From contig OZ024740.1 in assembly GCA_964016885.1 (NCBI GenBank), positions 90,210,001 to 90,274,000 of the forward strand: a stretch of DNA of 64,000 nucleotides, in the 5' to 3' direction. Position 1 is the first letter of the stretch. Every line of letters begins with the position of its first letter. The position numbers and the translations under genes were made by a program. The notes below the pieces were generated by a model. The model was not told the DNA's origin, did not search any database, and was given only the letters and a program-made list of their open reading frames with translations. The stretch comes from Eledone cirrhosa. Taxonomy: Eukaryota. This document shows, in pieces, positions 13,370 through 57,982 of this stretch.

Positions 13370-15012
13370 ATTAGAAAAGGGAAGTAAGATTCTATACAAA
13401 ACAGCGAATATAGAAAAAAGGTGAAATTGGAAATAGCATAGAAAATATATTTAGGGGCTGTTTTTTTTTGGGGGGGGGGGGGTCCTACCCTTTCTTTAAT
13501 TTGTTAAAATGACATTATTGGAAAAAGGAGAGGGACATTTCTTTAAAAAAATGTTTTACAATGTATATAAAGTATATAAAGTATTACCGGTTTCGATGTA
13601 TTATTAAAATTCATCTCAACAAATGTTGAGTATTGAAATACAAATTTAGAATGAATTAATAGAAGTTAAAAACTAAAAAATAAAGATTTAAAATTTATGA
13701 AGAAAAAAAAGAACAGACCCTAAAATATATATTTTCCAACTTATTAATATATATATATATATATATATATATATATATATATATATATATATATATATAT
13801 ATATATATATATATATATATATATATATATATATATATATATATATATTACTGATTAATGTTCAGAGCCATCCTCAGCATTCTCGTGTAGCACCCATCCA
13901 CCATCTGAGTGAGTTTCTTGGTCAGTGTCCAAGTCCCAGACCCATACAGCAGCACAGACTCCACTACAGCAATGAAGAGGCGGTTTTTCAGGTCTCTACG
14001 AAGGTCCGACTTCCACACCCATCTCAAGTTGTGGCACGCCGCCCAGGCCTTGCTCTTCCTCTCAACCACATCATCCTCCGTATTCCCAATCTTTGCTCCC
14101 AAATACAGGAAGTCCTCAACCAATTCCAGCGGCTTCCCGCCTACATTAGTGATCCCCTCTGGCTTCTCAACATTCTCTACCAGATATTTTGTTTTACCGA
14201 CATCTAGAGTTGACATTGCACTCAGTGCTCCTTTGGGAGCCCCTACATGGACACACTAGAAGAGGAAGACCAAGGTTAACATATGTTGATGCCCTAAGGA
14301 CAGACACTGGTCTGTTGGAGATGCAGGATATGGCAGCGATAATGATGGACAGAGACCGCTGGAGAGAACTCGTCCATGGATCTCGGGAATTTTACCCGCC
14401 TTAGATAGATAGATATATATTAGTGAAAGGAAAAGAAAATGCTGACAAATTGTTCCCAGTGAAAATTATTTTATTTAGGAATAAGTATAAATTAGTAATA
14501 AGTATTGTTTAGTATTCATTTTTAGTCTTAAGTTTTCACCGGTTGCGCATTTCTAGTGCTTTTCAAAAATAATTTTGAGATAGAGCGCTCGTGATGTTTG
14601 CTCTAATCTGTATATATATATACATGAGTACTACAATTAAAAAGAATTAATATGAATTAAAAACTAAGAATTACAGATTTAAAATCAAGTGTGGTAGTAA
14701 GTTTTTTTCCCTGGGAAATTTTTTTTAATTGTAGTACTCAACATTTGATGAGATGAATTTTAAAAATACGTCAAAACCGGTAATATTTTATATACTTTAT
14801 ATACTCTATATACGTTATAAAACTGTTTTTTAAAAGAATTGTCCCTCTCATTTATTCAATAATGTCATCTTTTCAATAATGTCACTTTAAAGAATCAATG
14901 AAAGGAAAAAAAAGGAAAAACAGACTCAAAATATATTTTCCGTGCTATTTCCAACTTCACCTTTTCCCTATATCCACAGTTTTCTATAGAGTCTTACTTC
15001 CCTTTTCTAATA
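13370..15012. repeat. Diverged inverted repeat (fold-back) with decayed hammerhead motifs, interrupted by an RTE insertion
   Basis: 13370-13640 is the reverse complement of about 14730-15012. The arms carry TTG(A/T)TGA-GATG..C(A/G)TC-(G/A)AAA-CCGG-TA. A third copy of the family lies at about 20450-20675. Confidence 0.75.
13848..14415. mobile_element. 5'-inverted RTE-clade LINE fragment
   Basis: Minus-strand 13848-14190 encodes [25 protein letters not shown]. Plus-strand 14192-14404 encodes the C-terminus [17 protein letters not shown], followed by a (TAGA)n tail. Confidence 0.85.
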
Positions 15013-15606
15013 TATATATATATATACAAATGAGGTTTTTTTTCAAAATGAAAATAAACGAGATGTCCTACAAGAGTGAAGATATAAGGAAAAAAGATAA
15101 AATCGAAAATGCAACTGGAGTCTTTTTAAGAATATTTGTTTTCTTCCTTTACCCGTTTCGCAGTTCTTATGCTTTACAAATGTAGAATTGAGATGTAGGG
15201 TTTGTAGTTTTTCTCGCATCTGGTTGGTGTTAGAATGTTACTTCTGTATTATGTGGGAAAATAATTTGGTTGGTTGATGACTGTCACGTAAATAAGTATA
15301 TTAAATTTCCCGCCCGTTCGCGTTGCAAATTCTTATTATATTTGCCTTAAAAAAAGAATGGGGGGTGCAGATTGTTTTTTCATCTAGGAGTGAAATTTGG
15401 TTGGTTGATGCAGTCACGTGAATGAGCACATCAACTTTCGCACCAGTACTTTTTTGAGGGTTCTTTTCACTTGAAAAATTGGCTCAAAAACGTTTTTTTT
15501 ATAATTGAAATTTGATTGGTTATGACTGTCACGTGAATAAGTACATTAGATTTCGTGCATATATATGTATATATATGTATATACGCGAAATTTAATATAT
15601 ATATAA

Positions 15607-15795
15607 TCTAGGGCGGGTAAAATTCCCGAGATCCATGGACGAGTTCTCAACAGCGGTCTCTGTCTCTCATTATCGCTGCTCTGTCCTGCGTCTCCAACAG
15701 ACGAGTGTCTGTCCTTAGGGCATCAACATACGTTAACCTAGGTCTTCCTCTTCTAGTGTGTCCATACATGGGCTCCCACAGGAGCAATGAGTGCA
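15607..15795 (-). mobile_element. RTE LINE 3' end fragment (same family as 14192-14415)
   Basis: Reverse-complement match to 14215-14405; (TA)n flanks. Confidence 0.8.
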
Positions 15796-56900: not shown

Positions 56901-57297
56901 GTATTATCGCGGTGCATATAGATAACTACTTATTACCTTGTAGTTATATCACAGTGAGACAGTGAGCGAACGTCCTTACAATCGAAATAATTCATTCAAC
57001 GTACTGTGTAAAAAGTAAGCGTACACTCAACAATACTATCCATATCTTCCATGCGACGTTTACTATATATATATATAAATATAAAAATATATATATATGT
57101 TTCCCTGTTTTACTGATAGCGCACTGTATATCTCTCTCTAGTGTGTTACCTTTTCAACATATTGTATTTTAAAGAGCTCAGGATTTATTCTCCTTTGAGC
57201 ACATTATTTACAGGAAATGGCGAGAGTCTATGGCTCCGTTAATTTATCGTGATATATATATATATATATATATATATATATATATATATATATATAT

Positions 57298-57982
57298 AAA
57301 TTAGAATTGGTGCTCTGAAATAGCGATATATATATGAATGTATATATAGTGTATTTTGCAATACACTGTATGTTTAATTAAAAGCATTTCGAAGACCTTA
57401 CGCTATTGTTTTAGAGTACTGACAGTCTCACTTACTTTAAATTTCCAGCAATCGAAGAGAGATAAAGGCTGACAGAGCTGTGTATAGTACTTGTTGGTAC
57501 TTATCAAAGCTAAGTACTCCACCTGTTTGCTGAAAATCATGAATGTTTGATTCTTATAGAATTCTAGTAATAATCAGGAACTGATTATACAGAGCGGTTG
57601 CTGGTCAAGCAGAAATTGAAAATTAGAATTGGTGCTCTGAAATAGCGATTTATATATGAATGTATATATAGTGTATTTTGCAATACACCGTATGCTTCAT
57701 TAAAAGCATTTCGAAGACCTTACGCTGTTGTTTTAGAGCACGGACAGTCTCACTTACTTTAAATTTTCAGCAATCAAGGGGAGATAAAGCTGACAGAGCA
57801 CTGTTTCGTACTTTTTGGTGCTTATCAAAGCTAAGTACTCTACCTGTTTGCTGAAAATCATGAACAGGTGGAGTACTTAGGTTTGATAAGTACCAACAAA
57901 TACGAAACATAGCTCTTTCAGCTTTATCTCCCCTTATTTGCTGAAAATATAAAGTAAGTGAGACTGTCACTACTCTAAAATA
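57298..57982. repeat. Direct tandem (about 245 bp, twice) followed by an inverted partial copy
   Basis: 57298-57543 is similar to 57620-57864; 57863-57982 is the reverse complement of about 57730-57848. Confidence 0.85.

Follow-up and report, generated by a model that had tools for sequence, protein, structure and literature searches.

Penelope-like elements (PLEs) provide most of the precedents for the structures described here. Inverted 5'-truncated PLE copies, tails at one end and a bias towards (TA)n have been published (PMC8557442), as have head-to-head palindromic joints (PMC3846280). The Hydra clade of PLEs is described by RWK, DKT and CxCX5C motifs, (TA)n targets and hammerhead ribozymes (HHRs) (PMC8557442). 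In Schistosoma, pairs of HHRs on opposite strands 100-700 bp apart and U3-A8 cores were attributed to truncated PLEs (PMC4209133). A PLE protein cuts and extends both strands, and the tail is the stretch between two reverse transcriptase (RT) start sites (PMC11167929). Ribozyme cleavage is dispensable in vitro and a dimer of the PLE protein is predicted (PMC11167929). Initiator (Inr)-like starts are located in the pseudo-long terminal repeats (pLTRs) (PMC3846280, PMC2377424). The origin of inverted pLTRs was named as a task (PMC8557442), and the later insertion steps were left unvalidated (PMC11167929).

The window analyzed is a 64,000 nt stretch of Eledone cirrhosa DNA (positions 90,210,001-90,274,000 of OZ024740.1, in a 3.0-Gb assembly). 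It has a GC content of 36% and (TA)n is abundant. An earlier note, made from the sequence alone, had described eleven inverted-repeat structures in it. These palindromes are head-to-head pairs of the 3' ends of a PLE or passenger RNA, and with a probability of roughly 60% they were twin-primed in a (TA)n cut and then joined. They were likely formed anew at each insertion.

Inverted repeats were called by self-BLAST with simple repeats masked first. All eleven were recovered (13370, 19858, 26165, 30453, 32162, 36110, 41790, 44220, 44821, 49503 and 57730, named by their noted starts), with coordinates matching or no more than about 100 nt off. Arm identity ranged from 74 to 98%. Masking shifted some recovered starts (41790 to 41891, 32162 to 32204), and most elements ran past their noted ends through a one-sided tail of about 35-90 nt. 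The repeats had been called mostly unrelated; 32162 and 49503, however, are relatives with 77% identity.

A blind sample of 1 Mb in 20 blocks contained 101 tight inverted repeats, while ten shuffled blocks contained none. Satellite block B11 (45 HHR hits, five tight repeats) was removed from the orientation and TA counts, which were made on about 0.95 Mb. (TA)n was present within 10 nt of an end in 57 of 96 repeats compared to 72 of 1,920 controls. A first orientation count was 25 outward, 2 inward and 3 mixed, after two of four inward rows proved to be boundary artefacts. With a small library of sense 3' segments, the blind-sample count was 33 outward, 3 inward, 8 ambiguous and 52 without a library match (p = 2e-7 for 33:3). 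The outward orientation and (TA)n flanking described in the earlier note are supported. At 33 outward repeats in 0.95 Mb, the whole genome would contain about 1.0e5 of them (0.7-1.5e5), an extrapolation from blocks not proportional to chromosome length.

The two arms of a pair ended at different sites. Genome searches scored the best 40 candidates; the 49503 counts came from the blind sample plus the window copy, and the 44821 family is known from the match table. Duplicate views of a single locus were dropped from the end-pairing and shared-variant counts. One long and one short 3' end were found in 67 of 69 pairs across five families (36110, 35/36; 19858, 7/8; 30453, 10/10; 44220, 5/5; 49503, 10/10, being nine blind-sample pairs and the window). 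The proportion was 19/20 for 36110 pairs found independently of the query. The arms also agreed with each other in sequence. At 37 of 46 loci the two arms carried an identical diagnostic 11-mer, compared to an expected 24%. Shared variants were 2-10 times commoner within than between loci in five families, for example 1.45 versus 0.24% in 36110 and 2.11 versus 0.53% in 32162. Both arms derive from the same source.

Pairs could also arise from two separate opposite insertions in one (TA)n tract, or from a later rearrangement duplicating one arm. Elements do stack in TA tracts, three tail-to-tail neighbors occur in the blind sample and 13370 may be an example. However, no (TA)n was found at the joints and head-to-head outnumbered tail-to-tail by 20 to 1. 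The subfamily concordance (37/46) and the one-tail rule also speak against this origin, which is highly improbable. A search for empty sites, bearing on (TA)n as target or product, gave no informative site among 34 insertions.

Inner reach was compared in 44 copies of 36110. The tail arm reached further in 13 and the plain arm in another 13, so that tail and greater inner length were not linked; five copies were ambiguous and 13 were left unscored. The cases with a longer plain arm argue against a single tail-first cDNA, in which the tail arm must be longer. Such a cDNA belongs to one form of self-priming, in which antisense RNA or nascent cDNA doubles back on a short palindrome and serves as its own template; of the two, the antisense variant had been proposed before (PMC3846280). 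Self-priming accounts for the head-to-head polarity, the shared variants and the palindromic joints, some of which are perfect palindromes, and its antisense-RNA variant is compatible with the inner-reach counts. The tail-first form disagrees with 13 of the 26 resolved cases, and self-priming alone does not account for the stop of the second arm at the other initiation site of the family. It is considered unlikely. The counts favor twin priming from both target ends, followed by end-joining, over single-cDNA self-priming.

The inner ends clustered. Among 64 independent arms of 36110, the most frequent inner end was the A of TCAGT (16/64); 36 of the 64 fell within -19..-10 and 3 lay beyond -30. 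Clusters were also found at TCACT in 32162 and CCAGT in 19858, and the inner ends of 30453 gathered at the 3' part of its tRNA-like head. We infer that these clusters are RNA 5' ends, and microhomology or RNA structure could produce clusters too. A 3' splice site was rejected as the explanation for the hot spot in 36110, as most arms keep the AG and the 32162 cluster is without AG. Inspection by eye showed no downstream promoter element. The 36110 hot spot (L328 and relatives) falls within the stem II loop of the ribozyme, and an RNA that began at this point would therefore have no complete ribozyme in its 5' pLTR. Restriction-site-associated DNA (RAD) depth and read ends at L328:1483 were rejected as an inner boundary, as they coincide with AATT, which is likely the restriction site. 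In contig run X1 depth was about 40-fold lower upstream at L328.

The joints showed overlaps of 0-6 nt or short inserts, some of which duplicated nearby sequence. This pattern resembles microhomology-mediated joining. Every family searched had common outer 3' ends, many solo arms and variable centers. The 27-nt joint of 44220 had one exact match genome-wide, in a search that mismatched copies would escape. In 36110 there were 37 junction cores in 44 copies, a number inflated by later point mutations. Twenty-three of 30 tail-anchored 36110 loci were fold-backs, 21 of them with joints inside a stretch of about 40 nt. The commonest 36110 joint was found in two subfamilies and both tail polarities (L112/L114 versus L120/L124), and one subfamily had many different joints. 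No fixed joint inherited with a subfamily was found. The 36110 joints are recurrent events at a hot spot and not an inherited single joint. Some families are uniform in size because their inner ends share a hot spot.

It had been suggested that the small palindromes are a class of fold-backs amplified as units, with variable centers named in advance as the result that would refute this. The centers vary in all families searched and the suggestion is not upheld. Some small palindromes could still be non-autonomous units transcribed and re-inserted as fold-backs, given the near-uniform size of 36110, its 23 fold-backs at 30 tail-anchored loci and the few identical joints at several loci. Against this stand the number of 36110 junction cores, the joint found across subfamilies and polarities, the many joints of one subfamily, the unique 44220 joint and the long copies that enter open reading frames (ORFs). 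Re-insertion of units is already largely refuted and very unlikely.

The palindromes do look like MITEs (miniature transposable elements with inverted repeats), as had been expected. MITE identity, as terminal inverted repeat (TIR) DNA transposons, is contradicted by the one-sided tails and the many solo arms. Among the 52 of 96 blind-sample repeats without a library match, some may be true MITEs or inverted pairs of short interspersed elements (SINEs), and palindromic reads could produce assembly or library artefacts. However, arms differ by 2-26% and consist of PLE 3' ends, tails are one-sided, and in many family copies the inverted partner is missing. Against the 36110 reference, raw reads from three further DNA runs with the same species label contained strand-switch joints as well as (TA)n behind each of the two 3' sites. 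Artefacts and DNA-transposon MITEs have almost no probability as the general explanation.

Under twin priming, the two ends of a (TA)n cut would each prime reverse transcription. One would start from the long site and its counterpart from the short site, on a single RNA or on RNAs that come from one source locus. The two cDNAs would proceed toward the 5' end of the RNA, in many cases likely its transcription start at an Inr-like pLTR motif, and their free ends would be joined by microhomology-mediated repair. Both primings in the 5' pLTR would leave a MITE-like scar of 110-450 bp, and the 2-6 kb form with an ORF would result when one of them took place in the 3' pLTR. The ribozymes would face outward because they sit near the priming sites of the RNA; their cleavage would likely be unneeded. 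The earlier proposal of one PLE-type integration mechanism across the size series is supported.

Several points weigh against twin priming. Exceptions to the one-tail rule are L059 with two tails, L117 with none and L192 with two long ends, and the window copies 13370, 32162 and 57730 are irregular in end pairing. Identical joints recur, at 4, 3, 2 and 2 loci in 36110 and at 4 loci, as one palindrome, in 30453. Inner ends of 44220 are scattered with no hot spot. The 36110 hot spot adjoins AATT microhomology and lies within a long stem-loop of the RNA, and each of these could be its cause. The extra G that a cap would leave at the putative start was present in 9 of 38 joints and is a weak signal, since the partner arm could account for 4 of the 9. 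Shared variants are equally expected from one RNA, two RNAs of one source locus or early gene conversion. In vitro the start site is alike on both strands (PMC11167929). The choice of best candidates biases the family counts to young copies, and more than half of the blind-sample repeats are without assignment. A more specific form of twin priming is put forward tentatively. In it a dimer would prime one cDNA at each of two fixed sites of one RNA, both cDNAs would reach the capped pLTR start and be end-joined, about 10^5 palindromes would map germline starts, and a tRNA-headed unit would ride along.

The ORF of element 26165 has RWK, DKT and CxCX5C motifs and no CCHH cysteines, which together with its (TA)n target agree with the description of the Hydra clade. 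Element 49503 has a 5'-truncated RT without an endonuclease match. The two enclosed ORFs are PLE RTs, in agreement with the earlier note. Searches of the PLE proteins against Pfam and PDB sequences gave no RT match, so the RT identity rests on motifs and two homologs. In long copies, the 36110 arm leads into an RT ORF that has RWR and DKT, and the 44220 arm comes after a GIY-YIG domain (E = 3.9e-6) and enters an ORF with GxKF and DKG. Because these long arm copies run into PLE ORFs, the 36110 and 44220 palindromes are pLTRs of autonomous PLEs. The statement that all palindromes other than these RT and RTE cases are non-coding fails for these two. GxKF, DKG and the endonuclease (EN) cysteines suggest that the 44220 partner belongs in a non-Hydra clade. 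An RT plus GIY-YIG ORF was linked to the arm for 26165 and the 44220 partner, an RT for the 36110 partner and an RT only for 49503. No ORF partner was found for the 19858 or 13370 arms. Features of EN+ PLE insertion were present, namely partial tandems (pLTR), variable 5' truncation and an optional tail.

The arms of 41790 and 57730 come from tandem non-coding HHR units, with a spacing of 420-430 bp (about 430 bp) and about 320 bp, respectively. The HHR-bearing tandem families among the palindromes are apparently non-autonomous. This much remains of the proposed non-autonomous class; amplification as a unit does not, and two families are autonomous PLE pLTRs.

The 30453 unit is about 265 bp and occurs in tandem (L102:1313-1902; L104:1600-1672). 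It has a tRNA-like head, called Ser (cga) by ARAGORN at one locus (L104/L105). In L102 this head is repeated along the tandem units, and ARAGORN made no tRNA call there. At about nine further loci, copies end just within the 3' part of the head. One copy stops right after the T-loop A, like an RT halt at a modified base. The integration signature (PLE-type ends) points to a link between 30453 and PLEs. If true, the tRNA-headed unit would be a PLE-dependent SINE.

Hammerheads were searched for with a type I descriptor permitting U3-A8 cores and a long stem II. The descriptor yielded five motifs in the window. Four were in element arms, all outward (26253-, 42039-, 49600- and 51629+), and the fifth was outside at 48442-. 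The blind 1-Mb sample gave 109 hits, 45 of them in one satellite block, compared to 1 in the reversed and 1 and 4 in the shuffled nulls. The remaining window arms had variant, damaged or half motifs, every one outward. The earlier note placed the hammerheads of right arms on + and those of left arms on -, and this held for each core or GAAA half found. The support for its statement that the arms carry hammerheads is weaker than it claimed: 4 of 22 arms, in 3 of the 11 elements, pass the full descriptor, and an Rfam scan of the window gave no hammerhead family at E<=1, with hairpin and TA-repeat noise only. Minimum-energy folding gave hammerhead-like stems for the left arms of 49503, 26165 and 41790 and the right arm of 19858, and none for the right arms of 44220 and 57730. 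The 30453 and 36110 window copies have the GAAA half only, and no credible full ribozyme was found in the 30453 tandem unit. The 36110 window joint is at the TCAGT motif in the stem II loop, and this copy keeps the GAAA half only because the joint cuts inside that loop. An identical damaged core is present in both 32162 arms (32253-, 32408+), with the family core intact. This fits an inactive ribozyme in the source RNA.

The 48442- hammerhead has a long palindromic stem III. It lies in a direct repeat (48257-48500 and 48921-49163) that is split by a dispersed repeat of about 190 bp. The latter has 5-6 copies (21827-22013, 33795-33907, 48687-48876, 50369-50563, 53511-53944), one of which breaks the 49503 ORF. 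The 45 blind-sample hits of the satellite block are U3-A8 hammerheads on both strands of a satellite-like array (L256-L260; G000:C7:30000001-30050000).

The individual window elements are as follows. Self-BLAST showed 13370..15012 to be two old head-to-head arms, 76% identical, of a U3-A8 minimal hammerhead family, both window cores being damaged. It contains an RTE-like fragment at 13848..14422 (-), with a weak DUF6451 match, which agrees with the RTE insertion noted before, and then a further unrelated repeat at ~14423-14612. Since each arm stops at the long 3' site, a single event is doubtful; two old insertions may be present instead. The fold-back at 19859..20265 has its tail on the right (~20183-20265). 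Its right arm has a hammerhead-like motif at 20049+ with an extra core base, a long stem II and a palindromic stem III; the left copy is damaged.

Element 26165 is a near-full-length Hydra-clade PLE at 26100..32135 (+), with a long inverted 3' arm and an extension (26100-26167) on the left. Its broken RT plus GIY-YIG-type ORF (27916..29900, +) has RWK, DKT, CxCX5C, CxxC and CxH motifs. The type I hammerhead of the left arm (26201..26263, -) passed the descriptor and the right-arm copy at 32050+ is mutated. The fold-back of the ~265-bp tRNA-headed tandem unit (30453..30599, tail on the right) is nested in the 3' untranslated region of 26165. In the fold-back at 32162..32460 both arms have the damaged core (CTAATGA) and the right arm stops early. 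The fold-back of the autonomous Hydra-type PLE pLTR is at 36032..36226, with its tail on the left (~36032-36109).

The retrozyme-like fold-back of the ~430-bp tandem HHR unit (41736..42620) has cores at 42039-, which passes the descriptor, and 42320+; the long site ends the left arm and the short site ends the right arm. A young fold-back (98%) of the autonomous canonical PLE pLTR is located at 44224..44717, with minimal hammerhead cores at 44372- and 44524+ and a tail on the right that overlaps the start of the ORF. It is followed by an old fold-back (74%) at 44776..45237 with a degenerate U3-A8 core at 44934- and a left extension of about 45 nt. The 5'-truncated PLE RT copy at 49416..51727 (+) has a short inverted arm and tail on the left, and its hammerheads at 49600- and 51629+ pass the descriptor. 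At 57299..57982 there are 1.8 units of the ~320-bp tandem U3-A8 HHR unit on - and a short inverted + arm (core 57883), which ends early without (TA)n.

Further PLE fragments (GIY-YIG, Hydra-type RT/EN pieces) are present at 33067-33456, 34095-34505, 52773-53154 and 54487-55014. The segment 34334-34805 is 91% like 42798-43264, inverted. A 327-bp unit occurs four times in tandem at 5040-6349 (93% alike), with no hammerhead hit. Two ORFs of non-LTR (long terminal repeat) retrotransposons, at 6884-10310 (+) and 58634-60541 (+), carry a restriction-like tail at the C-terminus (RVT_1, zf-RVT); the first looks nearly intact. Two copies of an L1/Tx1-like RT region, 94% identical, are at 1-2135 and 60957-63905 (-), and a gag-like ORF is at 2640-4787 (-).

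The short scars give counts that separate the models and name exact sites for the existing in vitro system. If twin priming is true, the palindromes would offer a genomic readout of PLE insertion. They may mislead repeat annotation. Families listed as MITE, as unclassified TIR and, in 893 cases, as unclassified SINE appear in a study of octopus repeats (PMC13282606). A tRNA-headed PLE passenger, if true, would extend the known SINE-partner pairs. A literature search of titles, abstract starts and term counts, with supplements and most subscription papers outside it, found neither twin priming in PLEs nor a tRNA-headed PLE passenger.

The palindromes share with EN+ PLE insertions the head-to-head inverted copy, the tail at one end, partial tandems, palindromic joints and, as candidate motifs, the pLTR HHR (PMC8557442, PMC3846280, PMC2377424). 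They differ in the abundance of ORF-less scars, extrapolated to about 10^5. The one-long-one-short rule, the concordance of the arms and the inner-end hot spots were counted here, and no such counts were found in the passages covered of the cited PLE literature. Element 26165 shares RWK, DKT, CxCX5C, the lack of CCHH, (TA)n and a predicted HHR with the Hydra clade and is assigned to it by motifs, and the 36110 partner shares RWR and DKT (PMC8557442). The minimal HHR pairs of Schistosoma have the same geometry and core covariation, but the portion of that text covered has no analysis of orientation, joint or tail (PMC4209133). Sm-alpha tRNA-related SINE-like elements with a hammerhead are, like the 30453 family, short repeated units that begin with a tRNA-like head; 30453 differs in being without a credible full ribozyme and in its PLE link by integration signature (PMC2770079). 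The tandem non-coding type I HHR units of 41790 (~430 bp) and 57730 (~320 bp) are shared with non-LTR retrozymes (PMC7229834; bioRxiv 10.64898/2026.07.22.740005). In contrast to these, 41790 and 57730 have PLE-type two-site 3' ends and inversions. In L1 twin priming two primers, one from each target end, use one RNA and the result is an inversion without duplication. In the palindromes here the same RNA stretch would instead be copied twice from two fixed internal sites. The palindrome structure itself is known; the counts, the tandem passengers and one tRNA-headed family are added here.

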